A stretch of 64,000 bases of DNA, from the IMG/VR virus record IMGVR_UViG_3300045988_179062; one strand, 5' to 3'. The position numbers and the translations under genes are program-made. A model generated the notes under the pieces. It did not search any database, was not told the origin of the DNA, and saw only the letters and a list, made by a program, of their open reading frames with translations. This document shows, piece by piece, positions 44,162-62,600 of the stretch; the first letter of the stretch is position 1; every line of letters starts with the position of its first letter. The stretch is from a virus.

Positions 44162-44476
44162 CTACGTCGGAATAACAATCTGTCCGTCTGCATCTTCCTG
44201 ACGAAAGCGCTTGTTCAACACATCAGAAGCGGAGAACTTGAAAATCACGTAGTCCTCCACGTTCGAACGCCCCTCAAACTGTACGGGGTGTCCCTTGTGC
44301 CTCTGCAGATAGAACGAACCGAAACCTGTCAGCGACAGTGTCCGTCCGCTCGCAACAACATCATGAATACCATTCACAATCGCATTGTAAGCATCCGTAA
44401 TATCCTCAAGGGACATGTCGTTATTGCGAGCAACGTCTGCGAGAAACTGGTTCTTGCTTATCTTGTTCTTCGTCAC
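44162..44476 (-). CDS. second, divergent HU/IHF-like DNA-binding protein
   Basis: 'LSLTGFGSFYLQRHKGHPVQFEGRSNVEDYVIFKFSAS' shows the HU beta-arm architecture. Confidence 0.65.
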   Translation of the reverse strand: MTKNKISKNQFLADVARNNDMSLEDITDAYNAIVNGIHDVVASGRTLSLTGFGSFYLQRHKGHPVQFEGRSNVEDYVIFKFSASDVLNKRFRQEDADGQIVIPT

Positions 44477-44703
44477 GTCACATCCTCTTTTCTATACAAT
44501 CGCATGTTCAACATTTTCACGGGATAATGCAAACCGCGCCAGCCGTATCCCGAAACGGCCCGCGCACAGTCGAGTTCGATTACCACCTTGCCAATAGTAT
44601 ACCTCAAAAACGCCCATAAATCAAGCAAAACAAAAGAAAAAAGAGCCGAAACGAAACGCACGTTCGTTCGGCTCTTCATCGTTGCTTATAACAAAGCTAT
44701 AGC

Positions 44704-44916
44704 TTACGGCTCGTAGAATTTGTCAGACGCGGCCTTGCCCGCCTCAATCTCCAACTTCAGACGCTCAATACGCTGCTCGCGCTCACGCTGTTCAGCGGCT
44801 GCCTCAGCAGAAGCACGCTCAGCGGGCGTCGCCTTCTCACTGCGAATACGTGCCATGCGCTGCGAAAACGTCTCAGGACGCAGACGGCGAGCCGTCTTAT
44901 CGGAAATCTCTGCCAT
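44704..44916 (-). CDS. hypothetical small protein (Glu/Arg/Ala-rich)
   Basis: RBS AAAGGGGTG is present. It is the last gene of the minus-strand operon. Confidence 0.35.
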   Translation of the reverse strand: MAEISDKTARRLRPETFSQRMARIRSEKATPAERASAEAAAEQREREQRIERLKLEIEAGKAASDKFYEP

Positions 44917-44933
44917 AACGGTACACCCCTTTC

Positions 44934-45305
44934 TTACTCGAACTCCATACCCGACTGAGGACCAGACGGACTTGCCACACGAGTGCTCAACTCAGTCGTA
45001 CGATACTTCAAATCGGGACGACGGCTGGAATGCCCACTGCTGGGACCGGAACGGGCATGTGCCTCCTCACGCGCCACCTGCTCCTCCAATCGTCCAACAT
45101 TCGCATCGTCACGCATCTGACGGTCGTTTGCACGGTCGTTGTACTGCATGCGAATCGCAAACTCGGATGCCATCAACAGCTGATTGGAAATATCCAACAT
45201 GCCGTCGATGACACGCGTCGAAACACGGTTCTCCTTGGCTTCCTTCTTCTCGCGGGCAACGACCTCGGGATTGCGATAACTATCAATCTCATCAATGAAA
45301 CTCAT
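44934..45305 (-). CDS. hypothetical protein
   Basis: RBS AAAGGAGG is present. Confidence 0.4.
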   Translation of the reverse strand: MSFIDEIDSYRNPEVVAREKKEAKENRVSTRVIDGMLDISNQLLMASEFAIRMQYNDRANDRQMRDDANVGRLEEQVAREEAHARSGPSSGHSSRRPDLKYRTTELSTRVASPSGPQSGMEFE

Positions 45306-45319
45306 AGCGATTACCTCCT

Positions 45320-45856
45320 TTACATGTACTTCTCAAGGGTCGACATGCCGGGATAAATATCCTCGTCATCCTTCCCCTCGTCGTAAACGGCTTCCTTCAG
45401 CTCCTTCGGAAGACGGCGACTGACATATCGGTCGTCCGCCTTGGTCTCCGTGCGAGACGCTATCGCCCCAGCGTGACCCAAAACTCTCTCGGCTGCAATG
45501 CCCTTGCGAACCTCATGCGAGACAACACGCTCGCCCGTCGACAGAACACCATACCCGTCGTCCTCGAACCGCTCGCGTATTTCCTCTGCATGCCTGCCGA
45601 CCATTTCGTCGTGCGCTTCCGAGCGCTTGTCCGTCGGCGTGAACGCTTCCGTCTTGCGAAGACCCGCATCAGCGAGCTTATGACGCTCCTGCTCAAACTC
45701 ATCCATCCCCTTCAAATCAGCCACACGCTCGCGGTACTCGGTAGAACCGAGTGCCAGCGAAGCGCCGTCGGAACGAGACGAGTTCTCACGGTCGCTCGAC
45801 GTATTATTCTGCCACGGTGCATGCGGAAGTCGACGTCGCTTATTATCTGCCATCAC
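45320..45856 (-). CDS. hypothetical protein
   Basis: RBS AAAGGAGG is present. Confidence 0.45.
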   Translation of the reverse strand: MMADNKRRRLPHAPWQNNTSSDRENSSRSDGASLALGSTEYRERVADLKGMDEFEQERHKLADAGLRKTEAFTPTDKRSEAHDEMVGRHAEEIRERFEDDGYGVLSTGERVVSHEVRKGIAAERVLGHAGAIASRTETKADDRYVSRRLPKELKEAVYDEGKDDEDIYPGMSTLEKYM

Positions 45857-45867
45857 AATCGCCTCCT

Positions 45868-47841
45868 TTAATCATACTGCGGACCGCCATCGTATCCGTC
45901 ATTACCCAAATCACCGAACTTGGCTTCTGCCTGACGTGCACGCTGAGCGGCCTTCTCTGCACGAGACGACTGCGCCGTACGCCCTGCCTGCTGCTGATAG
46001 CAACCCTTGGCGTACGACGTATCCACATCAGACAAATCCAGACAGCCAATCTGCTTATCGGCCCACGAACGGGCCTCATACAGACCATCAACGTTCTCAG
46101 GCACAGACTTGCCATCGACCTCGTACCAAATCTTGGCGCCTTCGTCCTCCGAATAACGAAGCATCTCCATCGCCTCGTCCTTGGACGCGCCCATGGCCAT
46201 CATGTTCGTCACACTGGATGCATACGTACGCATCACGCCGAACGCCGTGTTCGCCATGTCGTTGTAACGCCGCTCGTTCTCCGGCGAGGATGCGATGAAC
46301 TCCTTGACCGCCTTGCGGTTCTCCGGGTTCGTCATATCCATGTCGATACCCGCATCCACACAAGCCGACGCCGTCGCATACCAGCTGCTCAAATTAGCGG
46401 CATGCTTGCCGAACGCCTCGGACGACGGGTCGACACCGGCGGTGCGCTCCGCGAACGCCACGGCCAGAGACGAAATGTCAGCCGCATGCTGACCATCCAC
46501 CGAATCAAACGGCGTTGCCGTATCGCTGTACGAATCCGCGTACAGGAGCACGGATGCCTGCTTTGCGATGGCACCGTTCAGACCCATCGTAGCGGCGCGA
46601 CGCTCACGGGCCGAAACGCCCTCGGCGCCCGACGTGTTCTTCCAGTCAGCCATCGCCATATCGCGATACGCAGACATGTCGGCGCACGCCTTGTCGAACG
46701 CCATCTGGTCGTCCGGATTCTTCGACGCGCAGGTTGCCGTCTTATCGCCCGTCACACGACGCACCACATTGCTGATATCCTCACGTGCCGTATGAAGCTC
46801 ATCCGGGTTCGTCAGGTCGTAGGCGTTATCGTGCTCATCCATGACCTGCATGACGTTCTTGGCATACTCCATGTCCGTCATCGGCTCACGCACGGTAAAC
46901 GTCGCCTCGGAATCGACAGGAACCGTCGCCCCGTTCGCATCGCATGTCGCATACTCGCCACGCCACACGCGCATGGTCTCCATATGCGGAATGTTGTTCT
47001 CATCATAGACGGGAACACGCTCTTCCGTCGGCTCACCCTGCACCCACGTGCCGTAACCCATCTCACGGAACATATCCTTATAGGACGGGTCACGCTCCAC
47101 GGCCTTGCCGATGATGATGCGCTGGGAACGGGCCATGTCTTCACGACTCACGCCGTCCGCCTGCATCAGGGAATCAAGGGTCGAACGCGCCTCGTTGTAA
47201 CGGTCCATGACCTCCGCCGGGTCATGCTTGCCATCACGCATCTGCGCATAGGCTTCCTTCGCCATGCGAATGTCGGCTACCGCAGCGGTCTCCGGCGTAA
47301 ACGGCATACAACCCTGATTCGCGGCGGCGAGATACTTATCTCGCTTCTCCATCAACGTCTTGGTCAAGAAATTACGACCCAAGAACTTCTTATCGGGATG
47401 GTCCGCCATGAAATTCAACGCAGCGCCAATGCCCTGTGCCTTCGTATTGGTGACCATGTCACGAAACGCGGGATTCAACGCGGCCATGCCGGCATACATG
47501 CCAACTGCGGAAAGCACCTTTCCTATGGAAAGACCGCCGCGAAGCTGCTGTACGCAGGCGTAAAGCATACGACGCTGCATAATCTCGCCCATCATGCGCT
47601 GATGGTTCGTACGCTCACCCTTGTCCTGAATGTCAATCCATGCCTGACCCTTGTTCGTGAACGACACCATGTCGAACTGGATGTCATCCACATCCGACAT
47701 CAGCTTCTTCATCTGCTCGTCGCTGCGCTCGTCATTCAGATACAGACTGTCCTGACGACGACGCTCACGATTGGCTCGGGTCGCACGCTCCTTGTCAAGG
47801 CGCTTCTCCAGCTTCTTACGCTGCTTGCTTGCCATATTCAT
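45868..47841 (-). CDS. hypothetical 657-aa protein (operon with the RNAP-like gene)
   Basis: RBS GAAAGGAG is present. The composition is coding-like and no motif is recognised. Confidence 0.55.
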   Translation of the reverse strand: MNMASKQRKKLEKRLDKERATRANRERRRQDSLYLNDERSDEQMKKLMSDVDDIQFDMVSFTNKGQAWIDIQDKGERTNHQRMMGEIMQRRMLYACVQQLRGGLSIGKVLSAVGMYAGMAALNPAFRDMVTNTKAQGIGAALNFMADHPDKKFLGRNFLTKTLMEKRDKYLAAANQGCMPFTPETAAVADIRMAKEAYAQMRDGKHDPAEVMDRYNEARSTLDSLMQADGVSREDMARSQRIIIGKAVERDPSYKDMFREMGYGTWVQGEPTEERVPVYDENNIPHMETMRVWRGEYATCDANGATVPVDSEATFTVREPMTDMEYAKNVMQVMDEHDNAYDLTNPDELHTAREDISNVVRRVTGDKTATCASKNPDDQMAFDKACADMSAYRDMAMADWKNTSGAEGVSARERRAATMGLNGAIAKQASVLLYADSYSDTATPFDSVDGQHAADISSLAVAFAERTAGVDPSSEAFGKHAANLSSWYATASACVDAGIDMDMTNPENRKAVKEFIASSPENERRYNDMANTAFGVMRTYASSVTNMMAMGASKDEAMEMLRYSEDEGAKIWYEVDGKSVPENVDGLYEARSWADKQIGCLDLSDVDTSYAKGCYQQQAGRTAQSSRAEKAAQRARQAEAKFGDLGNDGYDGGPQYD

Positions 47842-47852
47842 TCACTCCTTTC

Positions 47853-49055
47853 TTAATCATTGTCCCCGTAATCGCCAACCGGCTTCTGCACGGACTGCGC
47901 GCCCGCCTGCTTAGCGACATCGCCAAACTTCTGCTGCGCCTGCTTGACGCGACCGGACAAGTCCTTGGTCGCCGTCTTCGCCTGAGAAGCCTGCTTCTGC
48001 ACCACATAAGGGTTCGGAGAAGCAATGCCACGGCTGAAGTCGATGCCCGACTTCGCCGTACCGACACGCTCAACCTGCTGCTTGGCATAGCCCTGCAACT
48101 TCTGCTGGTAGAACTTATCGTAACCAGCGCCAAGCTCGTTGTACGTCGCTCGACTCACGCGCAGGTCCTTCGGACGGCACTGGCCGACGGTTTCGGCAGG
48201 AAGGCCCTCGAAATCGCGATTATCGTACGCATACACCGTCTCGTAGAACTGACGCATATCGTCCGTGTAGGTGCGGCCCACGTTCTCGCCGAACTCATCG
48301 GCTTCCGCATGCAAATCCTCAGCGGACTTGCCGAACTTGTGGTCACGCGCCTCGTACCATGGAATATCCGGCTCATCGCCCTGAATCCCGTCTGCCTCGC
48401 GCTTGCGGTCGATGTCGTCCGCCTCGGCGTGCATCATGTCTTCCTGCATGGCGCCCTCATAGGCTTCCTGCTCGATGGCATCGCGGACTGCGATAATCTT
48501 CTCGTTCAGCATCTTGCCGTCTTCCGGCGTCCATGCCTGACCGTGGTCCATGCGGAAGTCCAGCATCTTGTTGAACGGCACGTCCTCGATACGGTCCGGG
48601 AACGTCGTCGGCGCCAGCTCGCTTGCGAGGGAACGGTCGCCGCGCGTATAAGGCTCCCCTTGATAATAGGCCGCCTCGCGGGCACGCTCATCGGCCCACA
48701 CGCGCATATCACTGCCCTCGCTCGGCACGAAACCGTAGGACTTCGCGAAACGGGTCAGGCTCTCACCCCAGCGCTCGGCGGACACGCTCGGATACTCCTC
48801 GTTCAGCGTATGGATTTCATCCATCGCGTCGGCGATTTCCGTCCAATCCTCGGCCGTCAACGGATGCTCATGAGCCTCAGGGATTACGTGGGACACCACG
48901 TAATCGACGTGCATGCCCAAATCGTCCTCTTCGGTGGGAAATCCGTCATTCTGCAGCCGGCTCGCCTCTTCCATCGCCTCGTCGTACTCCTCGGGCGTGA
49001 TGCCAAAGCGATTGAACATATCCATATCAGCGCCATCATGCTCATACGCTGCCAT
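47853..49055 (-). CDS. hypothetical highly acidic 400-aa protein
   Basis: RBS AAAGGAG is present. The protein is very Asp/Glu-rich. Confidence 0.55.
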   Translation of the reverse strand: MAAYEHDGADMDMFNRFGITPEEYDEAMEEASRLQNDGFPTEEDDLGMHVDYVVSHVIPEAHEHPLTAEDWTEIADAMDEIHTLNEEYPSVSAERWGESLTRFAKSYGFVPSEGSDMRVWADERAREAAYYQGEPYTRGDRSLASELAPTTFPDRIEDVPFNKMLDFRMDHGQAWTPEDGKMLNEKIIAVRDAIEQEAYEGAMQEDMMHAEADDIDRKREADGIQGDEPDIPWYEARDHKFGKSAEDLHAEADEFGENVGRTYTDDMRQFYETVYAYDNRDFEGLPAETVGQCRPKDLRVSRATYNELGAGYDKFYQQKLQGYAKQQVERVGTAKSGIDFSRGIASPNPYVVQKQASQAKTATKDLSGRVKQAQQKFGDVAKQAGAQSVQKPVGDYGDND

Positions 49056-49115
49056 ATCTCATCTACTCCTTTCATAAAGGGCAGCGGACGGAAAGCCCGC
49101 CACCCTGCATATCAG

Positions 49116-52100
49116 TTAGTCTTCGCCAAGGCCGCCATGACCGTTGTCCGACGGACTCGCCACGTTGTTGTTCGGCAAGCGACGAGGACCGACCGACACC
49201 GTACGCTTCGGACCGACCTTACGGTCATGACCGGACTCCACGGTATCCGTCTTCGTGAACGCGCGCATCGTCTTCGACGCATCCGCGCCCTCGACGCCAG
49301 CCTCGCGCTCTTCGAGCACATGCTCATTGTACTTCACCGAACGCGGTGCGAACTGGCTGTTGCACTCGCCACGGAAGAGGTTCTCTCCGTCACGGCACAT
49401 GCCGACCAGCATCTCGAAATTGCCGCCATACGCCAGCTTATCGAGCGGAGCCGCCATATCGACGTCTTCGGACTCGATATTGACGATATGCCCCGTCTTA
49501 TCGGACAAGGCGTCTGCGACCTGCTCGACGTAATCGGCGTTAAACGCCACGTTCAAGCCATCGCCTGCGGAATACAGGGTCTTGAAGCTCTTGACCCACG
49601 CGTCACGCTCGGCGGGGATAATCTCGCCGTTCTCATCCTTGGCGGCACGCCACTGACCGTTATCGTCCTTGGCGACATCGGCACCGCGCCACAGGTCGCG
49701 TGCGGGACCCATCAGAAGCTCATACTTGCGACGGGCCTCCTCGGCATTGTGCTTCGCCTGCAGAAGCGACTGAGTAACCGGCATGGTCAGCTCCAGCACT
49801 GCCTTCTGGCAGGTGTTGCGCATCGCGGACACGCCACGCTGCGAGTAGGAGCCGGCGATGCCCGTACCGAAGGACTTGACGGCACACGCCGTCATGACCT
49901 CCTGATTGTCCGCACGAGTCGCACCGGTATGTTCGCCCATCGTAGCGCCGGTGAAATCCATGTTCTGCGCGTTCGGCGCATCCATGCCACCCCAGCGCAT
50001 GTAATTCAACAGGTTCGCCGGCTTACCCTTTGCCCCCGTCTTGATACATGCCTCGTTGATGGACTCCAGATGCGACTCAGGGCTGTCGTAGCGGATAGCC
50101 GCACGACCGCACTGACCGGAGAAGACCTCATGGTACAGACCGGACAGAGCCTCGACCGTCTCCTTACGGGCCTCGGTAATCTCCGCCTTCGTCATGTTGC
50201 CGGCCAGATAGTCCGCCTCATTGGAGTTCACCGTCTTAGCGATGCTGTCGAAACGCTCCTTGAAGTGCGAATCCGGGCTGTTGGCAAACGCCACCTTGAC
50301 ATCCAGCGACTGCTGCATGAACAGCTCGAACGGCTTCTCAAGGTCGTCGCTCTTGACACCGTAGTCCAAAAGGTTCGCCTGCACGGAGAAGTTCTCCATC
50401 GCCTCGCGACGCGCCGCCGGAGTCATCAGATTAACCACGGCCACGGTATCGCCGTCGAAGTCACCATCGAAGGACTTATCCATGACAGGGTTGATGGCGA
50501 CACCCGTCAGGCTGTCATCAATCTTGGCGCGCATATAACGCATGCCACCGTCACGCAGGATAGGGTCACGCCAAATCAAAACGTAATCGTCATCCTTGAC
50601 GCCGATGGAATCCGCCATCGCGCGACCGACCGCCACTTGGTCGATATCCAGACGCGGGTCGGCGTTCCAGATGGCCGTCGCAGAGTTCGGCATCTTGTGC
50701 GCCATGACCTCGTCACGGAACACATTGTGCTTGCCCGTAAAGGCACGCTGCACCACATCGCCCGTGATACGGTCGAAGCTCGCCTGAGCCGTCGTCTGGC
50801 AGCGCTCCATCTGCGCACGCAGCGCCTCCTGCGTCTTGTCGTCCAGACCCGGCTTGCGGAGCTGTTCCTGACAAGCGCGGTACATGTTGGCCTGATTGAA
50901 GACCTCGATGTACTGATGCGTGTAATCGTGCACGCTGGACGTACCGTCAACGAACGTCTGACCGGAACGCAAGTACGAACTCATGACCGGCAGACCCCAC
51001 GTGACGTTATCGGTCTGGCGCTGACCGGCTTCCTGACGACGATGCACCGTGGTCGGACGGACATACACGCCATCCTTGCGGGTATAGCCCTTACGCTCCC
51101 ACTCCTGCTTCGTGTACACCACGTCGGTCTTGCCGTCGTTCATCGGGGCGATGGCCTCGCCCGTCGGATACTTCAGCTCGAACGGAAGCTCCATGACGCC
51201 ACCGGACTTGGCAATCAGCTCAGCGAAGTCACTGTCCATCGACTTGACGTCAAGCGACGGACGACCGTCCTTCGTCACACCCGGTGTACGATACTTCAGC
51301 TCCGGCATCTCGATGACGCGACGGACCTCGCCCTCGTGAGGCTGATAGCCCACACGGAACTGACCCGTCTCGCTGATGTCCAGACCGCACGTGATAAGCT
51401 GCTCACGGATGTTCGACAGCACCGAGCTGTTATTACCGAAGCACTCACGCATGATAGCCGGCGAACCCTTGGCGTTCGCAGCCCATGCCGCCTGTGCGGA
51501 GAACTTACGTCCGCCCTCCTCATCATAGACATGGGTCTTCGCATCTGCCGACTTGTCGGTCACGATGATGCGCATGGAACCCATGGCGCCCTTGATGACC
51601 GTGCCATCCGGCGCCTTCAAATCCTGCGGATTCTCCATCAACTCGCGCGCCGTACCGCCGTTAAAGCGGGACACGGCCGGGAACGGAGCCATGACCATAT
51701 CCAAATCAGGGTTGGCACGCAGCCACTTCACCTGCTCCAGAATGCCCTTGTCCTTGGCTTCCTCGTCCGACATGTTCGGGTCCATCACATAGACGACGCC
51801 CTTGTTGCCGTACGGGTCGGTGACCTTGTCACCGTTCACCATCGGACGAAGATGACCGTCACGGGTACGAATCTTGTACTCCTCGGCCAGACGCTTCGTG
51901 ATGACCACTTGGTCATCCATCGTCCAACCGCCAAAGGTCATCTGCGCCACATTGACCGGACGGGTCACGGCGCTTGCCTGCATCAGGTTCGACACCGTCA
52001 TGTTCTGACGGTCAAACGGGTTGAACTCCATATAACGGGCCAGCGGATGGTTCATAATGGCGCAACGGGCGTTCTTGTCCGACGACGGAGTGATACGTCC

Positions 52101-54758
52101 GTCCGCCTCCACATGAGCGCCGGAAACCAGATAACGCAGCGTACCCTGATTCGTGCTGGTCGCCGTCGTTGCCACCGGGTCGAAATACCCGTCGGACTCC
52201 TCGGTCAGCACAGCCATGTTGCGACCGCCCGTCAACACGAAAGCATCGCCCGTGTTGTCGTTCGCCATGTCGCGACCATAGGAACGAGCCGTGTAATCGG
52301 CATGGATGGTCGACCCGTCACGGATGGCGTTCGGATAACGAACGCGCTGCCCCTCGGTCTCGATGATGGCCCACAGCACATCATCCTCCATGCCCTGCTC
52401 GCGGAACTGCTCAACGAAATCGTAATCGTGACGCTCGTCATAGAGATGACGATACGTGTCGTTCACGCTGGTCGGAGCGCCATAGACACCGTCGCGGTTC
52501 ATCGACAGGAAATCCTGACGAATCTGGTAACGAATGCTCTCGCGCATCGCCTGCTCGTAACCGCGCAGGCGCGTACGCTCCTCGACCGTCGACGGATGAC
52601 CCGGCGTCTGCGCCAGCACATGCGCCTCGTAGCCCGGAACGAATGCATAGTTCTCGATGCCCGTGAAATTGGTGTACACCACGCCATGCTCATCCGGCTC
52701 GAAGAACTGACCAATCTCGCCCTCGACCTGCTGCAGAGGGTTCTTGCCGGTCGTATACGCCGACGTCGCAATCTGACCCTTGTAATGCACGATGCCGTTG
52801 CCGTCGATACGGATGTCCTCATCCTTGAAATCGACGCCGTTGGCTTCCAGCGAATCGTGAATCTCCTGATACATGCTGCGCATGAACGGAGACTTCACGT
52901 CCTTCATCGCACGGGCAGACGCATAATCGAACTTGACCAGCTTACTCTTCATCGCCTGCGTATAGAAATCGTCGCCCTTCAGCTCGTCGGGCTTGATATC
53001 CAGCATACGCATCGCCTTGACGAGGTCATCGTTGTTACGGTAAATGCCGTAAGCCGACGTCTGGAACGCCGACACGCCAACCGGGTTGAAACGCTGACCA
53101 TTCTCGTCCGGCGTGTAATCGCCGATACGGTATTCCACCGACGACGAAGCATGGGCGCGAACCATATCCTCAGGCGACATATCCGACGGATAGACCAAAT
53201 CGGACAGCTCGTTACGATACAACGTGCTGGCCACCGCATCATCGGTCTCCAGCTCGCCGACCTCGGAGATACGCTCCTCGAACTCCTCGGCCTGACGACC
53301 CGGACGCATCAGGGTCGACTTGTTGCCAAGCAGGACATCGTAATAGCCCTGCTGAATCACGGCGATGTCGGGATTGCCCGACAGCTCCGACGCGAAATCC
53401 TCGTCATGACCATGCTCGGCAACATGCTGGATGATACGCTCCGCGTCCAGCTCGGTAGCGTAATTCTCACGCGCCGTACGAACCGCCTCGCGCAGATACT
53501 CATCCGCATCCGCCTGACTGACCATGGTGGTCGTCGCAGCGGAACGCCCGCTCACATCCACGTTGATGTAGAGCTGGTTGTTATAACGGTCGCCTTCCTT
53601 GCCCGTATGGGCGTTACGGTGGGGCTTGCCGATAGTGACATGGGAACCACGGGAGTTATGGTACGTGCCGTAGACCGTCTTGCGCTGGTTGCGCTCGATA
53701 CGGGTATACGTGCCGAACTTGCCGACCGGTTCGTCGGTACCCGGCTTCGTCATCGGCTCGCCGAGACCGTACTTCACCATCATCAGCGTCTCATCCACCG
53801 TAGGCTCCGGCGCATCACTGATGCTGGTGGACATGGTCGTCTTCAACAGCATGAACATGCCGTTGTCATACACACGACCAATCATGCGGGCATTGTCCGG
53901 CGTATCCATCACACGGATGCTCACGCGCGTGCCGTCCACCGTCGCCTGCAGCTGTCCCGGACGCATGTCGGGACGAATGCTGTAATCGCGTCCCTCTCGG
54001 TCCAGCTCCTCCATGATGGCAACGGCCTTATCCATGGAGCGGCGGTGAGTCTGCATCTGCTCCGGCGTCATCTTCGACAAGTCAAAGCCGCGCTCAACCC
54101 ACGACGAGCACTTCGCATAGTCCTCAGCGGACATAAAGCGCTTCAGACGGGTCATCCCCAACAGGTCCGCCTTGCACGTCAGCGAGCGACCACGGTCGCT
54201 GCCACGCCACACGGCGTCCTTGCCGCGCATGGACAGATTGCCCGCATACGGTGCCGCAAACCCGCCACGCGTCGTCGCGAGCGCCTCGGCGGAAGGCACC
54301 TTGCTATCCATAGCGACACCGCCAAGACGAGTGCCGTTGTCCATAACGGCATCGTTCATGGCAAACCGAGGGTCATACGGCGAAATCGGCATATAATGCC
54401 CCTCGCTCGTCACCTCGGACTCCTTACCAGTCTCCAGACCGACCAGCGACTTATAGTCGGCGAACTGGTGATTGAACAAACGACGACCTGCATCTCCGTC
54501 CGCATACGGGGCATGCCCCATGCGCTCGGAAAGAACCGCATTCGTCGCTGCGATGAAGTCTGGAATCCTCAGAGTCTCCATCGACTTTCCTTCGGACGCC
54601 AATCGCTGACCCAAACGAGTGCGGAACATACGACCCTCGGACGCCATGATGTAATCAGGGCGACTCTCAGTGACCTGCGACTCGTTATAGTCGCGAATCA
54701 CGTCGTAGAACGCATACTCGTAAAGGTAACGAGTCTTGTCCTTAGCAGTCAGTTTCAT
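49116..54758 (-). CDS. giant single-chain multisubunit-type RNA polymerase-like protein (fused beta-like and beta-prime-like double-psi beta-barrels)
   Basis: The beta-DPBB signature 'MVNGDKVTDPYGNKGVV...PDLDMVMAPFPAVSRFNGG' is encoded at 51795-51842. Compare RpoB 'GDKMAGRHGNKGV...DIVLNPLGVPSRMNIGQ'. The beta-prime-DPBB signature 'WRDPILRDGGMRYM...INPVMDKSFDGDFDGDTVAVVNLMTPAARREA' includes DFDGD at ~50447-50475. Compare RpoC 'NRAPTLHRLGIQAF...[23 protein letters not shown]'. The start is taken at ATG 54758 (AAGGA 4 nt upstream). The track ORF extends to a GTG at 54923 with an Arg/Ser-rich, non-protein-like leader. Confidence 0.75.
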   Translation of the reverse strand: MKLTAKDKTRYLYEYAFYDVIRDYNESQVTESRPDYIMASEGRMFRTRLGQRLASEGKSMETLRIPDFIAATNAVLSERMGHAPYADGDAGRRLFNHQFADYKSLVGLETGKESEVTSEGHYMPISPYDPRFAMNDAVMDNGTRLGGVAMDSKVPSAEALATTRGGFAAPYAGNLSMRGKDAVWRGSDRGRSLTCKADLLGMTRLKRFMSAEDYAKCSSWVERGFDLSKMTPEQMQTHRRSMDKAVAIMEELDREGRDYSIRPDMRPGQLQATVDGTRVSIRVMDTPDNARMIGRVYDNGMFMLLKTTMSTSISDAPEPTVDETLMMVKYGLGEPMTKPGTDEPVGKFGTYTRIERNQRKTVYGTYHNSRGSHVTIGKPHRNAHTGKEGDRYNNQLYINVDVSGRSAATTTMVSQADADEYLREAVRTARENYATELDAERIIQHVAEHGHDEDFASELSGNPDIAVIQQGYYDVLLGNKSTLMRPGRQAEEFEERISEVGELETDDAVASTLYRNELSDLVYPSDMSPEDMVRAHASSSVEYRIGDYTPDENGQRFNPVGVSAFQTSAYGIYRNNDDLVKAMRMLDIKPDELKGDDFYTQAMKSKLVKFDYASARAMKDVKSPFMRSMYQEIHDSLEANGVDFKDEDIRIDGNGIVHYKGQIATSAYTTGKNPLQQVEGEIGQFFEPDEHGVVYTNFTGIENYAFVPGYEAHVLAQTPGHPSTVEERTRLRGYEQAMRESIRYQIRQDFLSMNRDGVYGAPTSVNDTYRHLYDERHDYDFVEQFREQGMEDDVLWAIIETEGQRVRYPNAIRDGSTIHADYTARSYGRDMANDNTGDAFVLTGGRNMAVLTEESDGYFDPVATTATSTNQGTLRYLVSGAHVEADGRITPSSDKNARCAIMNHPLARYMEFNPFDRQNMTVSNLMQASAVTRPVNVAQMTFGGWTMDDQVVITKRLAEEYKIRTRDGHLRPMVNGDKVTDPYGNKGVVYVMDPNMSDEEAKDKGILEQVKWLRANPDLDMVMAPFPAVSRFNGGTARELMENPQDLKAPDGTVIKGAMGSMRIIVTDKSADAKTHVYDEEGGRKFSAQAAWAANAKGSPAIMRECFGNNSSVLSNIREQLITCGLDISETGQFRVGYQPHEGEVRRVIEMPELKYRTPGVTKDGRPSLDVKSMDSDFAELIAKSGGVMELPFELKYPTGEAIAPMNDGKTDVVYTKQEWERKGYTRKDGVYVRPTTVHRRQEAGQRQTDNVTWGLPVMSSYLRSGQTFVDGTSSVHDYTHQYIEVFNQANMYRACQEQLRKPGLDDKTQEALRAQMERCQTTAQASFDRITGDVVQRAFTGKHNVFRDEVMAHKMPNSATAIWNADPRLDIDQVAVGRAMADSIGVKDDDYVLIWRDPILRDGGMRYMRAKIDDSLTGVAINPVMDKSFDGDFDGDTVAVVNLMTPAARREAMENFSVQANLLDYGVKSDDLEKPFELFMQQSLDVKVAFANSPDSHFKERFDSIAKTVNSNEADYLAGNMTKAEITEARKETVEALSGLYHEVFSGQCGRAAIRYDSPESHLESINEACIKTGAKGKPANLLNYMRWGGMDAPNAQNMDFTGATMGEHTGATRADNQEVMTACAVKSFGTGIAGSYSQRGVSAMRNTCQKAVLELTMPVTQSLLQAKHNAEEARRKYELLMGPARDLWRGADVAKDDNGQWRAAKDENGEIIPAERDAWVKSFKTLYSAGDGLNVAFNADYVEQVADALSDKTGHIVNIESEDVDMAAPLDKLAYGGNFEMLVGMCRDGENLFRGECNSQFAPRSVKYNEHVLEEREAGVEGADASKTMRAFTKTDTVESGHDRKVGPKRTVSVGPRRLPNNNVASPSDNGHGGLGED

Positions 54759-55069
54759 CGTATCCTTCACATCCTTTCCGATGTCGTGAACGTAAACACA
54801 AAAGAAGCCGGAACCCAACGACATCTCGTCGGAATCCCGGCTTCTGCAACGCATTGGCACAGACCTTCGCGACGACTCGCTCTTATTGCCCGACGGCAAC
54901 CTTCCGTGGTCACATTCATGCACCTATAATCTTAGAAAAGTATACCATATACGAACAGAAATTTCAAGACTTCAGAGCAACATAACCGCAGGTAAAATAA
55001 GAAGAACACCTTCCCTGCTGCGTACAGAATAAATACGACAAGGCGCGACGCCTTGCGATGGGAATCCTG

Positions 55070-55217
55070 AGAATCGTAGCTCAGTGGTAGAGCTTCGGGC
55101 GTTCCGTCCATGAGAGGGTTCGAGTCCCTTTGTTCTTGCGGGAAGAGTGGGTAGCGGGCGACAGGCCGAAAGGCGACGCACCGGGTACAGCGCGGGTTCG
55201 AATCCCGTCGGTTCTCT
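55070..55217 (+). tRNA. tRNA-like locus: one D-arm and two T-arm/3'-acceptor segments (tRNA with an inserted or duplicated 3' portion, or a tRNA plus pseudo-tRNA)
   Basis: A canonical D-arm, GCTCAGTGGTAGAGC, lies at 55079-55093 and is preceded by TA and the acceptor 5' arm AGAATCG at 55070-55076. T-arms lie at 55114-55130 (GAGGG-TTCGAGT-CCCTT) and 55192-55208 (GCGGG-TTCGAAT-CCCGT). The 3' strand CGGTTCT at 55209-55215 pairs with AGAATCG (one G.U). No clean anticodon arm could be folded by eye. Confidence 0.4.
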
Positions 55218-55245: not shown

Positions 55246-55455
55246 ATGGAGGAAACCAAGACCAAAACGCTGAATCTGTCCATCGAATGCCGGGCTTACT
55301 ACAACACACACATCGAGGTGCCGGCTAACCTCACCTTTGACGAGGCCATCGAGTACGCCAAGCAGCGCCTCGACGAGGTGCCCATCGAAGGTCATCTCGA
55401 ATACGTATCAGGCTCTGACGTTCTCGACATCAACAACTGCAACTTCAACGAATAA
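55246..55455 (+). CDS. hypothetical small protein
   Basis: RBS GAAAGGAG is upstream. Confidence 0.4.
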   Translation: MEETKTKTLNLSIECRAYYNTHIEVPANLTFDEAIEYAKQRLDEVPIEGHLEYVSGSDVLDINNCNFNE

Positions 55456-55469
55456 AGGAGGACAACACA

Positions 55470-55697
55470 ATGGCAAATCTCAAACGAACCGCAGTCGGAG
55501 GGGAATCACAAGGACCCCGACCATGGCAGTACACCCACACGGAGACGTGGGTTGCCGACGACGCCATCACCGATAACGACTTGGAGCAACTGAAGGAAGA
55601 GCATTACAACATGTTCCCCGTCGTCGGCGTCGGATTCGAAATCGGACCCGATTCCAAGACCGTCATCGCCACAGTTGTCCTCGACAACTGCCAGTAA
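55470..55697 (+). CDS. hypothetical small protein
   Basis: RBS AAAGGAGG is upstream. Confidence 0.4.
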   Translation: MANLKRTAVGGESQGPRPWQYTHTETWVADDAITDNDLEQLKEEHYNMFPVVGVGFEIGPDSKTVIATVVLDNCQ

Positions 55698-55700
55698 CGC

Positions 55701-55735
55701 AAATACGCCACCCATACGGGTGGCGTATTTTTTAT
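55701..55735. terminator. bidirectional Rho-independent terminator
   Basis: The stem is ATACGCCACCC / GGGTGGCGTAT with loop ATAC, followed by TTTTTTAT. Confidence 0.7.
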
Positions 55736-55739
55736 CGTA

Positions 55740-56093
55740 TCAAGACTCCTCTGTCGCGTCGAAATACGCATCCAGCATCGTCTGCGCCGCTTGGAGCTGT
55801 GGCCAAATCGTCGCCATCTCCTCGGGCGAGATGTCGCGGAACGGTCGCCCGCCGACAAAATGAAGCTCGTACCCCTCGTCGTCGCGTATCCACCACGCCA
55901 CGACGTAACAGTAGTGATGACCCTCGTCCCACTTCACCAGCTCCACGGGGATGGCACGACGAATCGCAGAGTCATTGTCGTACCGGAACCTGTCATTGGT
56001 GTACTTCTCTCTCACCGTGGTGATTTCAAAACAGCCGAACCGCCAGTGAAAATCAAAGACCCCGTCTTGAGAAAACATCTGCTCCTGCTCCAT
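55740..56093 (-). CDS. hypothetical protein
   Basis: The start at 'MEQEQ...' overlaps the upstream stop (TAATG coupling). Confidence 0.4.
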   Translation of the reverse strand: MEQEQMFSQDGVFDFHWRFGCFEITTVREKYTNDRFRYDNDSAIRRAIPVELVKWDEGHHYCYVVAWWIRDDEGYELHFVGGRPFRDISPEEMATIWPQLQAAQTMLDAYFDATEES

Positions 56094-56464
56094 TATGAAA
56101 CCACCACCTTCTCCTTCGCACGGCGAAGCATCGCCGGCAGATAATACAGATAGTTCGACAGCACCGTGACATGGAGCTGTACCTCCACCGGCACATTCCA
56201 ATAGGCATCCGACAAGCACAGGCTGCGACGCAGACTCATGCCCGCCTGCTTCGCCGTGTCCACGGCATCGCTGTCAGACCATGAGCGATTGCCGCAATCA
56301 TCGACACGGGCGAAACTTTTCTCCGTCAGTATCGCCTCGCGCTCGATGTATCGCTTCACAATGCCCACCGATACGGCAATCACCGACGGATGGGGATTGC
56401 CGATATGCTCCAGAACACTGTCGACGAAACAGATGTCACGCCAGTCCTCAATTACCTTACCCAT
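56093..56464 (-). CDS. hypothetical protein
   Basis: RBS GAAAGGGG is present. It lies 5 nt after the primase gene. Confidence 0.4.
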   Translation of the reverse strand: MGKVIEDWRDICFVDSVLEHIGNPHPSVIAVSVGIVKRYIEREAILTEKSFARVDDCGNRSWSDSDAVDTAKQAGMSLRRSLCLSDAYWNVPVEVQLHVTVLSNYLYYLPAMLRRAKEKVVVS

Positions 56465-56469
56465 ATAAA

Positions 56470-58308
56470 TTACGCCCCTTTCTTCTCAACGGTGCCGGCA
56501 TCTTCAACCATATCCCCGACAACCGTGCGACGCACATGCACCGCATTATCCGTGCGCAACAGTCCTCGCGCACGGCTCGGCACATCCGGGGAACACAGCT
56601 GGTCGAGATTCGACCCGCGAAAACCCGATTTCATCAAACTCTTGACGTCATACTCCAGAATCAGCGGCTCGGGATAGTCCATACGTCCCGACGTGCTGAC
56701 CTGATTATCCGAACACGTCCAGTCGGGATACTCTTCGAGCACCTGACGGAAGTCCTTCAGGAAACCCTTCTTGCTCTGAATCTTTCCCGACGGCATATAC
56801 GTGCGATACCAGCCCTCGTAGAACCGATACAGCCAGTCCCATGGAATCAAGTCCCACGAGAAGCGAGGCAACGTATCCTCGGTGAACTGGCGCACCGGGT
56901 CGTTGAACGACTTATAGTCTTCCAACAGGTCAACGCACGCTGTCGGCTCGTCAAGCTCGTAATAATCAGTCTCGGCAAGCACGTGATACAACACGTATTC
57001 AAGCACGTCCTGACGATACAGATAATCGTCCTTGATGTACTTGCGCTCGCGACCCTGAAATCGCTTGTCGAACGGAATCACCAGCAGGCGACGGTACATC
57101 GACTCCGACTTGTCCTTGAGCTTGGGCATCTCGTTGACACACTGCACCATGAACCCGCGAAACAGAAGCGACCTCGGGTCCTTGAACTTGCGGTTTATCT
57201 GGAACGGGTCATGGGTGATGACGCACTTGAGCGCGGCCGCATCGTCCACGAACGTACCGGTGTCGTTCTCATCGGTGATGATGGCCGACACACGGGTCAG
57301 AGGCTCCAGCATGAACTGCTCGGAGAAGTTCTTCAACGGGATGGACTCCCACGCGCCCGGACCGCACAGATTGCGCATCAACACGCACAGCGTTCCCTTG
57401 CCGTTGTTACCCAGCGTCGAATAGAACCATGCGCTCTTGTTCCAGCTCACGTTCGGACGGATGACCGCCCCGATAATCTCCCACAACAGCCTGACGATTT
57501 CCGGGTCGTCGGAAAGCTCGTTCATCCACGAGACGACGTCCCAGTCCGTGTTGTCATCGCTGTTATGTATCACGGGATTTTTCGCGCCGTCGACGAAGTT
57601 GACGTGGCTCTTGCTGGTAAAGACAAAATCCGGGTCGAACGCCATCAGAATCTTGTTGCCGTAATCGTAGATGCCGTTGTTCACGGCGACCAAATCGCGG
57701 TCGCGACAACGCTCCACACGGGGGCAAATCGCACGAAGCACGGCAACCGTCTCGGCGACGTCCTTGATGCTCATGGCTTTGTTGTAGCGCCGAATCAGAC
57801 GCTCGATACCGTCGAAGCTGGTATCGTAGCAACCCATGTTGTCGCCCTCGGTCTGATAGATGCCGATGTCATAGTTGCCCTCGTCGCGAACGCTGGCCCA
57901 GCAGACGCACACGGCATGGTGCAACTTGTACAGAAGCACCGCAATCTGCATCGGATGCAGACCGCTGATGCGCTTATAGCGCTCCACGCCCTGCTTCTGG
58001 TCAGGATAGGCATCCCTCTGCTTCGCGCCGGCAGGTGCGTTCGGGTCGCACTTGCCCAAGTTGTACGCGTCAATGCAACGGTTCGTCAAGGTGAGAAGCT
58101 CGTATTTGAGTGTATCGCGAGCAGGAGGGTTCTCCGTGTCGATGCCCTGCAGATAGAACAGCGTCGCATACTCCAAAAGGTCATCATAAGCAATGACCTG
58201 CTCAGAACAGTATGATACAATGTCAGCAGCGCAATCGTCAGGTAAGCGCATATCTTCCTCCGTCGCTCCGATGTCAACTGCATCGGGGCGATTTTCTTGT
58301 AAACTCAC
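56470..58308 (-). CDS. phage/plasmid primase-helicase, P4/D5 family (C-terminal SF3 NTPase domain)
   Basis: The D5_N/Primase_C-type region has Walker A 'STLGNNGKGTL' and Walker B 'AIITDENDTG'. 'FKDPRSLLFRGFMVQCVNEMP' is present. The N-terminal half is a primase-type domain. Confidence 0.7.
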   Translation of the reverse strand: MSLQENRPDAVDIGATEEDMRLPDDCAADIVSYCSEQVIAYDDLLEYATLFYLQGIDTENPPARDTLKYELLTLTNRCIDAYNLGKCDPNAPAGAKQRDAYPDQKQGVERYKRISGLHPMQIAVLLYKLHHAVCVCWASVRDEGNYDIGIYQTEGDNMGCYDTSFDGIERLIRRYNKAMSIKDVAETVAVLRAICPRVERCRDRDLVAVNNGIYDYGNKILMAFDPDFVFTSKSHVNFVDGAKNPVIHNSDDNTDWDVVSWMNELSDDPEIVRLLWEIIGAVIRPNVSWNKSAWFYSTLGNNGKGTLCVLMRNLCGPGAWESIPLKNFSEQFMLEPLTRVSAIITDENDTGTFVDDAAALKCVITHDPFQINRKFKDPRSLLFRGFMVQCVNEMPKLKDKSESMYRRLLVIPFDKRFQGRERKYIKDDYLYRQDVLEYVLYHVLAETDYYELDEPTACVDLLEDYKSFNDPVRQFTEDTLPRFSWDLIPWDWLYRFYEGWYRTYMPSGKIQSKKGFLKDFRQVLEEYPDWTCSDNQVSTSGRMDYPEPLILEYDVKSLMKSGFRGSNLDQLCSPDVPSRARGLLRTDNAVHVRRTVVGDMVEDAGTVEKKGA

Positions 58309-58310
58309 GC

Positions 58311-58628
58311 TTATCCCTCCTCTCTATAAATATCGTGCTCCAGCATGAAGCGTTCCAGACTCATGCGGTGCACCTTCTTGTGCCGACTGTTCCCTCCGGG
58401 TGCGATAAAAGGACAGTCGGGCTGATTCATCAACTCATTCAATCGGTTGATACCGATGCCGAACAGCTCGGACGCTTCCCGCTTCGTCAGAAACGGCTTG
58501 TACGACAGCGCTTGGATGTACGACGCATAATCTTCCATGGACATCTCAACCCCGCCAATCACATGGCGAGTCGTTGAGACGGCCGGCGTCTCACTCTGAC
58601 TCATCACAGGCTTGCTCATGATAATCAC
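58311..58628 (-). CDS. helix-turn-helix DNA-binding protein (excisionase/AlpA-like)
   Basis: The HTH is 'LTKREASELFGIGINRLNELM'. It sits immediately upstream of the primase and next to the iteron array. Confidence 0.5.
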   Translation of the reverse strand: MIIMSKPVMSQSETPAVSTTRHVIGGVEMSMEDYASYIQALSYKPFLTKREASELFGIGINRLNELMNQPDCPFIAPGGNSRHKKVHRMSLERFMLEHDIYREEG

Positions 58629-59690: not shown

Positions 59691-62600
59691 TTAGTCTCTC
59701 AGCAGACGAGCCATCTCGGTCTCGAAACGTCCGTTCGCAAACTTCCAACTCGATTGTGAAATCAGGAAGTCGAGGAACGCATCCGTTACCGTAAACGAAC
59801 CCATGCGCTCCACATCGTGAGCGTTGATATCCTGCTCCGAGTAAACGTTCGATGTCGGGTCATGAATCGCCTCGTTGATGCTGTTCAGCTCTTCGCTCTT
59901 AACGCCCATGACAATGTACGGAACGCCCGTCGCCGAATACAGCGAGCCGTTGCGCATCTCGAAGTTGATGCGGTCCTGCTCGAAATCACCCTTCACCTCA
60001 AGGAACGCGTTCGTAATCGTCTGGTCCAGACTGTGATTGTAACGACCGTTGTTCTTGAAATCGGCCGGCGACAAAGCGCCATCGGCATAGCATGCCGTAT
60101 GCATCGCATCGTATTCGGCCGCCTTCTCGGCGTTCACACGGGCCTGCTCCTCGTTCGGAACGGCACGCGCGGCAAACGATTCCTGCATCGCCATGTAATC
60201 ATCGTCAATCGGCGGAGAGTACATGTCGTCATCATCCGAACCCTTCAGCGTCTCGTTCAGAGAGGTGTTGATGACCTCCATGATTTCATCGGCGTACAGG
60301 TCGGGGTCGAGCTGTTCAATCTGATGCTCCGTGTAATCATACGTCGACTGGTATGCCTCACGGGCCATGTCGACAGCCAACGCCTGCGCGATGCGCTTGT
60401 CGAGCATCTTGTCGAAATCAGGCACGTTCTTGCGCACATCGAAGTCCTTCGCCGAGGACAGCGTCGGGATGGTCTGGAACGTGTACTTGTGACCCGGCTG
60501 CGTGATGGTCTCAGAGAACAGGCGCCAAGACATCGGCAGAATGGTCTCGTTGCGGTTCCAAATCGGCGAGTCACCGGCACGGAAGATGATGGAGTTACGC
60601 TCCGAAATAAACGCCATGTCGTTGTACTTGATAACCGGCTCTTCGACCGTCGTCATCGTGTACGACACCTTGCCCTCGTTACGCATCCAGACCTTCTCGG
60701 TATCACGCGTGATGGTCTTGGAGTTCGTGTAGGCACGATGCTGCGTACCGCTCATCTTCTGCAACGTATCCAACATGCTATCGTCAGTCGACTTCAAAAA
60801 GACGATGTTGGACGTGTTGCCCTGCACGATTTTATCGACGCTATCGCCGTAAACATCGCGCAACTGCTGAAGGGTCTGCAGAATCAGCGTGAACTGCTGC
60901 TCCTGACCGAGTCCGATGGAAAGCATCGTCTCAAAGCCGGAGATACCGTGACCCTCGGACTGCAGGTTACCCAACTCATCGAGCATGAAACGCGTCTTGT
61001 AGAGTGGCTTCTGATTGTCCTTCGTCATGTAGGACTGGTCGAAATTGAGGTCAACCAGCTGCTTGATGAGAATCAGAATCAGCTTCGCATACGACATCAG
61101 GTGCGGAGGCGTGACAAGGAACACCATCTTCTGCTTCTCGCTGTAACGCTGCATGTACTGCGTGATGGCACGGGCCTTCACCGTCTCCTTATGCGGCGTC
61201 GTGGCGATGTCCTTCATCTTCTCCGTCTTGTACGTCACATACCCGCGCTTGAACTCCGTAGCGCCCGTCTTCGGATTCTTCACGGGACGAAGCTCGGTCA
61301 GGATGCCATCATGGACAATCTTGTTGCCCAGAATCGGGTCCTTAACGTACGTACGGCCGTCCAGCGACGTCTGATACGTCTTCACGAACTTGAAGTAGAA
61401 CGTGCGCATCAGCTGGAACGTCTGCGGGTTGCGAATCTCACAGCGCAGATACGCCGTGTCCTTCGGGAAGATTCCCTTGAAATAGAATCGCGACCAACCA
61501 GCCGTGTTGACCAAGTCCTCATGATAGAAGTCCTTGCCCAGCGATTCCTTGAACAACGGGTCGGAGAACGCCTGCCAGATGCACTGCATACCCTTGAGGT
61601 GGTACAGCGCGATGAAATCGGCGCTCATACGGAAACCAAGACGACGCGGGAACGACAGACCAGCCAAGTCCACGTTCTGCATCGGCGTACCGCTGGTCAG
61701 CGTACGGATGGTCGGGTCCGTGAAGAACGACATGGCCGTGATGGCGATACCGTAGACGGAAGCCATCATCTTCTCGGCGCCACCCATGGAACGCAGGGCG
61801 TCATCGGCGTTGCCCAAAAGCGTACGCATCTGGTTACGCGGCAGGAGCTTCGTCGCGTTGAAGTACAGCGTCAGCAGGTCAATCTCGGGCTTCTCTTCCC
61901 ACAGATACTTGGACTGCTTCTCCACACGGGACAGCTCAGCCTCATACTGCTCGTCATTCATCTCAGCGATACGGGCTGCTTCCTCTGTCGCCGGGGTACG
62001 GCCCTCCGCCATGGCGGCATTGGCTTCCTTGGCTTCCTTCGTGAACGCAACAGCCGGGTTCGGGAGCTTCTTGGACGTCAACGTGACGAACAGCTCATAG
62101 CAGTTGTACAGCGTGACGTGACCCCACAGATTGTCGAGCTTGGTCTCCAGCGTCTTCTCGTCCATGTGCGTGCGCTGGGCAATCAGACGCAGTTCCTTCT
62201 CCTCTTCGAGGTAATAGTCGATAAGACCGTACGCAGCACGCTTGAACGCGTTGTTAGCGGCGTTCGGCCACACCGGGTCGTCACCGCCATCGACCGGGAA
62301 GAACACCTCGGCGATGTTGTTGACATACATGGCAACCTTGGTGAAGTCACCCTCGCGGGCTGCCGTCGCGGCCATCATCAACGGGTTGTAAATGTCCGTA
62401 TTCATCGAGTTAATCAGGTTGAACTGCACGACCTGAAAACCGCGATACGTACCGGGCACATAGAACTTCTTCAACAGCTCGCCCTTCGGGTCGTTGATGA
62501 CCATGTTGTTATTGTTCTTCTCACGGGTCCACATGTCAATGGTCGGCTCGATGATGGTCTGACCCTTACCTGCACGCGTGATAGCCAAAACCATCGTGTT

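Follow-up and report, generated by a model that had tools for sequence, protein, structure and literature searches.

The closest described relatives of the system analyzed here are the NCgl1702-like beta::beta' RNA polymerases (RNAPs) of mobile elements, which were reportedly described by Iyer, Koonin and Aravind in 2003 and by Iyer and Aravind in 2012. They are also mentioned in two other papers (PMC2919709 and PMC7824862). A further comparison is with YonO of the Bacillus prophage SPbeta, a mobile-element RNAP of the single-chain two-barrel kind that has been shown to work (PMC5467207). Here we analyze a six-gene operon, headed by a single-chain RNAP gene, on the minus strand of a 64,000-nucleotide (nt) stretch of IMG/VR virus record IMGVR_UViG_3300045988_179062 (hereafter, the window). 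The operon is part of the DNA-transfer module of a plasmid-like conjugative element, a large one of ~150-160 kb, and its polymerase is followed, in the window and in nearly all related loci, by a 657-amino-acid (aa) protein that we call p657. The window RNAP likely belongs to the NCgl1702-like group, with which it was compared by description only: in both cases one polypeptide of ~1900-2200 aa carries both double-psi barrels, and the mobile elements are those of Actinomycetota. To our knowledge, no member of this RNAP family has been studied experimentally. YonO resembles the window RNAP in being a single-chain two-barrel enzyme encoded by a mobile element, and it has been shown to transcribe the genes of its own element; it differs in its size (~800 aa), in being phage-borne and in having no coupling protein beside it. 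The RNAP family itself has already been noted computationally. Apparently new here are the module of type IV coupling protein, RNAP, p657 and HU-family protein, the p657 family, the five genes that follow the RNAP gene in the operon of this lineage, the shared C-terminal tails and the leader RNA; we found no description of them in the literature searched, outside which lay the papers that define the NCgl1702-like group.

The RNAP gene (49116..54758, minus strand) was identified by Pfam, by a family profile compared with the PDB and by its invariant motifs. Its reading frame can be read from a GTG at 54923, the extent given in the initial annotation of this DNA. The start is almost certainly ATG 54758 (1880 aa), because homologues align from MKLTAKDKTRYLY on, the upstream frame is not conserved in locus L115, and the ribosome-binding site (RBS) GGAAAGGA precedes this codon. 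Pfam RNA_pol_Rpb1_2 matched the window RNAP (E = 2e-7), and RNA_pol_Rpb2_6 is recorded on many of its homologues. A family profile built from 14 diverse homologues aligned to Rpc1 and to bacterial beta' in the PDB across the DFDGD motif (E = 1e-12). The beta'-type barrel with its DxDGD motif (NADFDGD) is present as SFDGDFDGDTVAV in the window RNAP, and D1433, D1435 and D1437 are invariant in the 14 homologues. The lysines of the beta-type barrel (GDK...HGNKGV) are likewise present, in NGDKVTDPYGNKGVV, and D977, K978, G984, N985, K986, G987 and V988 are invariant among RNAP homologues. When the beta-barrel segment of the window alone was compared with the PDB (phmmer), it matched no beta/Rpb2 or other RNAP. 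Since both barrels carry the invariant catalytic motifs, the protein is a fused beta::beta' two-barrel RNAP whose active site is intact as judged by these motifs. It is not YonO-like by direct search: when 50,697 phage records were searched with the window RNAP by tblastn, nothing matched at E = 1e-5. No Toprim or archaeo-eukaryotic primase domain was matched in Pfam by any of the six operon proteins. As a separate observation, phrog_23188, a 5002-position profile annotated as a tail length tape measure protein, matches residues 1427-1503 of the RNAP, and some giant phage proteins annotated as tape measures may hold an RNAP module.

Relatives of the RNAP were found in more than 100 loci on Actinomycetota chromosomes, on plasmids and in metagenomes, nearly always directly after a coupling protein. 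In a scan that took a single genome for each species, 77 loci were found, mostly from Streptomyces, Arthrobacter, Kribbella, Microbacterium and other Actinomycetota, together with a few gut metagenome-assembled genomes (MAGs). By tblastn, the coupling protein was directly upstream of the RNAP in 73 of these 77 loci (52-56% identity) and a p657 homologue downstream in 74; the RNAP itself is less conserved than the coupling protein, at 35-42% identity. An HU gene lies downstream of the RNAP in 65 of the 77, and in 71 of the 84 relative loci. IMG/VR held a further 28 related contigs of 41-192 kb (L087-L114), filed as viral and carrying the same module, with the coupling protein in 27, p657 in 25 and HU in 24 of them. 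These contigs, which have a relaxase-type module, are either misclassified plasmids or integrative and conjugative elements, or else phage-plasmids. At least one of them (88,668 bp) is the same contig as one in a MAG labeled uncultured Actinomyces. The core order among relatives is AAA+ protein, ~750-aa protein, coupling protein, RNAP, p657, ~115-aa protein and HU. The module also occurs on plasmids, including Gordonia pGKT2, where a MobL gene lies upstream; the part of PMC5640721 that cites Jung et al. (2011) states that pGKT2 has been moved experimentally into three genera. Distant RNAP homologues (24-26% identity over the barrels), annotated as hypothetical, were seen on plasmids of Staphylococcus (55-65 kb) and Lactococcus (90-211 kb). 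The one on Staphylococcus plasmid SAP020A (MOBP; L121, 10321-15744) has as its neighbors very large genes that carry no annotation and one for topoisomerase III.

The gene for p657 (45868..47841, minus strand) was characterized by synteny, family search and an AlphaFold model. Of 84 relative loci, 81 have a p657 homologue after the RNAP (82 of 85 when the window is counted), and ~107 of 113 relative loci have one overall. In most actinobacterial loci, its gene starts a few nucleotides past the RNAP stop codon. A word-index search with the family alignment reached only 38 close relatives; an exhaustive HMMER search of 1.84 billion representatives reached further and gave 260 p657 family clusters. 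Distant homologues used as anchors led back to the same module. In L118, the order is coupling protein, RNAP (1814 aa), a 173-aa protein, a p657-like protein (444 aa), a protein like the 178-aa product of the window operon (p178), a 111-aa protein and HU; in L119, a short contig, it is a p657-like protein (1439 aa), a p178-like protein, a 110-aa protein and HU. Thus, p657 is a near-constant neighbor of the RNAP across deep divergence, its near-universal partner, with HU and the coupling protein as further constant neighbors, and it represents a new protein family of 260 representative clusters. The AlphaFold model, made from a 100-sequence alignment, was confident (predicted local distance difference test, pLDDT, 91.5; predicted template-modeling score, pTM, 0.84). 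Apart from a small beta domain (residues 266-308), the protein is almost entirely helical; its conserved core covers residues 40-340. The model has no known fold relative, and the sequence has no match in Pfam or NCBIfam. No sigma region 2/4, TFIIB-like or other initiation-factor fold was found in p657, and nine long homologues (875-1439 aa) contained no Pfam domain that could give a clue by fusion.

The six genes form one transcription unit with a single promoter, a structured leader and a single strong terminator. The minus-strand open reading frames (ORFs) lie where the initial annotation had placed them; with the RNAP start corrected, they span 49116-54758, 47853-49055, 45868-47841, 45320-45856, 44934-45305 and 44704-44916. 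Codon usage was scored with a log-odds model that had been trained on three window genes (RNAP, p657 and coupling protein). All six ORFs came out as coding, from 42 (the 70-aa ORF) to 1063 (RNAP), and the long antisense ORFs were rejected; training on the RNAP and coupling-protein genes only gave the same outcome for the six ORFs. The gaps between the genes are, in operon order, 60, 11, 11, 14 and 17 nt; the RBS-like sequences in them are AAAGGAG, AAAGGAG, AAAGGAGG, AAAGGAGG and AAAGGGG. The short gaps and canonical RBSs described earlier thus hold, with gaps of 11-60 rather than 12-60 nt and RBSs of the AAAGGAG type. A consensus scan found a sigma70-type promoter (TTGAAA-17-TGgTATACT, 54967-54939, minus strand) with 10 of 12 matches and an extended -10 element. 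Its hexamers (TTGA / TATAMT) are kept in the window, L079, L084 and L115; only the -10 element is kept in L082, and the hexamers are shifted in L083. The operon is closed by an intrinsic, Rho-independent terminator (44632..44676, minus strand), a GC-rich hairpin at 44676-44641 (-22.7 kcal/mol, z = -3.8; none of 200 shuffles as stable) that is followed by UUUUUUCUUUU, a U-tract extending to ~44632. The strong terminator proposed before was therefore borne out and its extent refined. Within the operon there is no promoter or terminator comparable to the outer ones. Co-transcription of the five genes with the RNAP gene, also proposed before, agrees with the shared orientation and close packing of the genes, which have a single promoter ahead of them and a single terminator behind. 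The same five-gene downstream series recurs in independent lineages, with products of 389/669/176/123/76 aa, 512/690/173/118/69 aa, 559/525/172/159/109 aa and 351/648/189/115/112 aa, and its order is maintained in relatives whose RNAP identity is as low as 46%.

Between the promoter and the start codon lies a structured 5' leader (54759..54935, minus strand). It contains two invariant small hairpins with GUCG loops, UUGCC-GUCG-GGCAA and GCGA-GUCG-UCGC (motif at 54870-54897), which are flanked by a GACC/GGUC helix. A stable hairpin with a U-run (~54808-54840; -19.8 kcal/mol, z = -3.4) follows on their 3' side, and then the RBS. The leader is kept in the window, L079, L082, L083 and L115 and is degenerate in L084; it was seen upstream of the RNAP gene in L115-L117 as well. 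The motif occurs once in the window, 100 shuffles gave no match, and no Rfam family matched the leader. This conserved leader looks like an attenuator or a cis-regulatory RNA and is a candidate for gating expression of the operon. We also considered the motif as a repeated promoter or operator and rejected this, given the one copy in the window and only three further metagenome contigs that carry it.

The four smaller downstream proteins differ in how widely they are spread. Like p657, they gave nothing significant in Pfam, PHROGs or NCBIfam, in agreement with the earlier statement that the five products show no recognizable motif. The 178-aa protein p178 (45320..45856, minus strand) recurs directly after p657 in several lineages. 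It is 41-69% identical among loci L079-L084 and has a conserved C-terminus (YPGMSTLEKYM in the window, ...L(E/R)KYM in general); its hidden Markov model (HMM) matched L118 (3.5e-24) and L119 (2.6e-8), and tblastn matched L066. The other three are confined to the window lineage (L079-L084, RNAP identity at least 46%). Homologues of the acidic 400-aa protein (47853..49055, minus strand) were found only in L079-L084, and the slot between RNAP and p657 is filled by other proteins in other lineages. By tblastn, the 123-aa protein p123 (44934..45305, minus strand) was found only in L079-L082 and the 70-aa protein p70 (44704..44916, minus strand) only in L079/L080; the exact p70 sequence is present on 153 contigs. 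Some HMM seeds were assigned by position and not by similarity (p123 in L083/L084; p70 in L082-L084). The HMMs of the four smaller proteins matched no ORF in 78 other loci, the matches of p178 to L118 and L119 having come later. Homology of p70 and p123 to the ~115-aa protein that precedes HU in actinobacterial loci was rejected (hhalign probability below 1% for each); they agree with it in position and type of tail only. Co-occurrence with the RNAP thus holds for p657 and, in several lineages, for p178, but not for the acidic 400-aa protein, p123 and p70. These three are lineage-specific additions: as they are missing from most RNAP-bearing loci, they cannot be general polymerase factors, and to this extent the suggestion that the downstream genes encode accessory factors of the RNAP does not stand.

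The DNA-transfer context of the operon was overlooked in the initial annotation, and with it the probable role of the polymerase shifts. Upstream of the RNAP gene, Pfam and NCBIfam identified a VirD4/TraG-type coupling protein of 1368 aa (59691..63797, minus strand), with matches to T4SS-DNA_transf, TrwB_AAD_bind and TraG-D_C (E = 2e-20, 3e-9 and 1e-12) and to the NCBIfam VirD4-like CD1115 family (E = 3e-43, below the family cut-off). At 1368 aa, it is about twice the usual size of such proteins. Beyond the end of the window, L086, a contig with the exact window proteins, continues with a MobL relaxase, an AAA+ ATPase and a 774-aa protein immediately before the coupling protein. A distance of 6.5 kb separates the MobL-family protein (704 aa) from the coupling protein downstream of it, and MobL is found in pGKT2 and L083 as well; L084 likewise has the transfer-module setting. 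A relaxase and a coupling protein thus stand in one module, as in a conjugative element. Just past the operon terminator and outside the operon lies the gene of an HU-family DNA-binding protein (44162..44476, minus strand; Pfam Bac_DNA_binding, E = 2e-8, score over the gathering threshold), which ranks as the module's second widespread partner; it has a promoter-like site of its own at 44624-44596. The order of the module is therefore MobL, AAA+, 774-aa protein, VirD4-type coupling protein, an insertion with a D5-type helicase, RNAP, the 400-, 657-, 178-, 123- and 70-aa proteins, terminator and HU. The insertion (55246..58628, both strands) is lineage-specific and absent from actinobacterial loci. 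Besides the D5-type helicase gene (56470-58308, minus strand; Pfam DUF5906 and D5_N), which one source annotates as primase/helicase, it contains small ORFs, a tRNA-like element and two ORFs on the plus strand.

Several observations on the surroundings are added here. The tRNA-like element (55070-55216, plus strand) scores 40.7 bits against the Rfam tRNA model. Its anticodon region holds 67 inserted nt, the T-arm-like sequence GGGUUCGARUCCC is present twice, and ARAGORN does not recognize a tRNA there. It could be a disrupted or fused tRNA or the remnant of an integration site. A second HU-family gene (97 aa, 42652-42945, minus strand) lies 1.2 kb downstream of the first, and the duplication is also seen in L079, L081 and L082. 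The AAA+ ATPase upstream of the coupling protein has a LAGLIDADG intein-type domain (L086, 4589-7504), and the coupling protein seems split into three ORFs in L084 (1-1156 and 5030-9740 were noted). In L083, an RNase H gene (Cauli_VI plus RNase_H; 2330-3031) directly follows the MobL relaxase, an arrangement that would be in keeping with RNA-primed synthesis of DNA during transfer. A second, ClpB-like double AAA+ ATPase adjoins a UvrD-type helicase in the window (19959-21872 and 21950-24859, plus strand); the pair also lies near the RNAP module in L118 (14250-18698) and may be another conserved module.

Proteins identical or nearly so to those of the window occur on many metagenome contigs of 124-163 kb, and one RefSeq record with them is labeled Alistipes putredinis; a sister lineage (contigs of 169-181 kb) is labeled Coriobacteriaceae. 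The strong Shine-Dalgarno sites and the sigma70-type (TTGACA/TATAAT) promoter fit an actinobacterial or Firmicutes host better than one of the Bacteroidota. The Alistipes putredinis (Bacteroidota) label therefore looks doubtful, or else the element was acquired recently.

Several proteins of the module have an acidic C-terminal stretch in which an aromatic or hydrophobic residue stands close to the end. Tails of the RNAP family include ...DDDYGMGY, those of the p657 family ...EDYQPA and ...GPQYD, and those of the ~115-aa family ...EPD(L/F)EL and ...GFEF; the 173-aa slot protein of L118 ends in ...DYDFDEFDFD. The window proteins have the tails GDYGDND (400-aa protein), GPQYD (as in the p657 family), GMEFE (p123) and DKFYEP (p70). 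We defined a tip motif, after seeing the data, as an aromatic beside an acidic residue within the last eight residues and no K or R, and counted it by lineage, with lineages set at 70% RNAP identity. The motif was present in 7 of 15 RNAP lineages, 7 of 14 p657 lineages and 5 of 7 lineages of the ~115-aa protein, against a baseline of 5-10% for internal 8-mers. It was found in none of 11 HU lineages and none of nine lineages of the 774-aa family, and is absent from the coupling protein too. Acidic, aromatic-ended C-terminal tips are found on the single-stranded DNA-binding protein SSB and on the gp2.5 and gp4 proteins of phage T7, and Dot/Icm substrates carry Glu-rich C-terminal signals. The likeness is that of short acidic-hydrophobic C-terminal peptides common to several proteins that dock on one hub, and the resemblance is one of motif alone. 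Mainly because the tips are shared, we consider it suggestive that the RNAP, p657 and the small proteins may dock on one hub, for which the neighboring coupling protein would be the candidate.

The constant pairing of the RNAP with p657 and HU beside a secretion coupling ATPase argues that the polymerase probably serves conjugative transfer and not a phage. Our preferred reading, which we put forward tentatively and would not yet call probable, is that the element encodes a polymerase complex that primes or transcribes the transferred DNA and is possibly delivered through the secretion system. RNAP and p657 would form a two-component polymerase in which p657 may be a template-loading or specificity subunit. 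The frequent companion p178 could serve as an adaptor, and the acidic 400-aa protein, p123 and p70 would be lineage-specific accessories in conserved slots. Acting on the transferred plasmid strand, the polymerase might prime the complementary strand, transcribe establishment genes without host sigma factors, or both. The acidic-aromatic tips would be docking signals by which the unusually large coupling protein recruits these proteins and possibly exports them to the recipient with the DNA, and the leader with its terminator-like hairpin would gate expression of the operon. The conjugative primases TraC1 (RP4) and Sog (R64/ColIb-P9), which leave the donor along with the DNA and, once in the recipient, prime synthesis of the second strand (PMC5512222), offer a functional model for the window RNAP as RNA-synthesizing enzymes encoded in a transfer region; they are Toprim (DnaG-type) primases of unrelated fold, and export and priming by the window RNAP are proposed by analogy only. 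The virion RNAP of phage N4 is injected with the phage genome (PMC5512222). By the same kind of analogy, N4 gp50 and crAss-like gp66 may be compared with the window RNAP as polymerases that arrive with an incoming genome to start expression, whereas they are delivered in the virion and not by type IV secretion, and no sequence match was found in the phage collection. The crAss-like gp66 is a polymerase of the two-barrel type.

A number of points weigh against this proposal. Members of the RNAP and p657 families are known here from sequence alone, and p657 is put forward as an RNAP subunit on the strength of synteny; it has no fold or sequence likeness to sigma factors, primase accessory proteins, SSBs or any known family. 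The tip motif is post hoc and, strictly defined, is missing from about half of the lineages, the tail of the window RNAP itself (GHGGLGED) has no aromatic residue, and we know of no such secretion signal established for Gram-positive or actinobacterial type IV systems. The window lineage has the D5-type helicase, which one annotation calls a primase/helicase, so that a priming role of the RNAP is not required there. A 4-kb insertion breaks the adjacency of coupling protein and RNAP in the window itself, and IMG/VR files the related elements as viral.

A close rival, which we judge possible though on the unlikely side, is that RNAP, p657 as its promoter-specificity factor and HU as an architectural factor transcribe the element's own transfer or maintenance genes in the host without recourse to host RNAP, with no export. 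YonO sets the precedent for such a donor-side transcriptase, as it transcribes the late operon of its own element (PMC5467207), and the host-type promoter and regulated-looking leader of the RNAP operon are what a master switch might have. The HU-like gene yonN, presumably the neighbor of yonO in SPbeta, would also be in line with it. The constancy and adjacency of p657 would suit a specificity subunit, but p657 has neither a sigma-like nor a TFIIB-like fold. No repeated promoter-like motif was seen in the window, in a check that covered only the leader motif with its single copy, and the strict placement after the coupling protein and the shared tips are left unexplained. The present data cannot separate transcription in the donor from action on the transferred strand.

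In its strongest form, the proposed action on transferred DNA would make the RNAP, p657 and the tail-bearing small proteins type IV secretion substrates, with the coupling protein reading their tips and the polymerase making the first RNA, be it primers, early transcripts or both, on the entering strand. This we consider unlikely.

The initial annotation had proposed that the polymerase has its substrates, or its accessory or processivity factors, in the downstream proteins, and that the 400-aa protein could be a DNA mimic. As a mimic, it might be anti-restriction or inhibit host DNA-binding proteins; we regard this combination as improbable. Co-transcription with the RNAP gene and the net charge of -41 of the 400-aa protein speak for it, anti-restriction proteins are common in transfer regions (PMC5512222), and the variable content of the slot between RNAP and p657 is as expected under an arms race. 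The 400-aa protein is strongly acidic (21% D+E, isoelectric point 4.5) and not, as had been said, extremely so. It matched no ArdA, Ocr or other family in Pfam, PHROG or NCBIfam, and its AF2 model, all-helical and of moderate quality (pLDDT 71), matched nothing in the PDB below E = 0.1 by Foldseek. The DNA-mimic idea thus found no support, although a mimic unrelated to the known ones is conceivable. Most RNAP-bearing loci lack three of the five downstream proteins.

Still less probable, in our estimate, is a phage or phage-plasmid in which the RNAP and its tail-bearing partners are packaged in the virion and injected, as are crAss-like gp66 and the N4 virion RNAP. Such a reading would account for the viral label of the 28 IMG/VR contigs (41-192 kb), for the phage-like genes of the window (NrdD, dUTPase, D5-type helicase and HNH nuclease) and for the PHROG profile, annotated as tape-measure protein, that contains the same RNAP barrel. 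Against it, no capsid, portal, terminase or tail family was found in Pfam or PHROGs among the ~36 window proteins scanned, whose PHROG matches were to metabolism and replication families only, and neither megablast (DNA) nor tblastn (protein) found a relative in the 50,697 phage records. A relaxase and a coupling protein flank the module, its relatives lie on bona fide plasmids and chromosomal islands, and a phage origin was rejected.

That the five genes are unrelated cargo downstream of the RNAP is very improbable: no domain points to a role in transcription and three of the five are lineage-restricted, yet p657 stays beside the RNAP at 25-40% RNAP identity, in several bacterial phyla and on plasmids, so that for p657 the idea is already disfavored, and the five-gene series keeps its order down to 46% RNAP identity, with 11-17-nt gaps of the size seen in translational coupling.

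The first primers and transcripts of a conjugative plasmid in its new host are only partly understood. Their known sources in the recipient are host RNAP acting on single-stranded DNA promoters and exported Toprim primases. The module described here is widespread, occurring in more than 100 loci in Actinomycetota, in gut elements and on plasmids, one of them transferable, and it places a full two-barrel RNAP and an uncharacterized, confidently folded partner behind a coupling protein. If the polymerase acts on transferred DNA, it would be a new answer to the problem of establishment and would help to explain independence of host range. If export also holds, the system would parallel, in conjugation, the virion RNAPs of phages, and its enzyme would be the first two-barrel polymerase for which export from cell to cell is known. 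If it is instead a donor-side transcriptase, it would be a second experimentally tractable minimal RNAP, with a specificity factor other than sigma. On either reading, p657 is a concrete new protein family.

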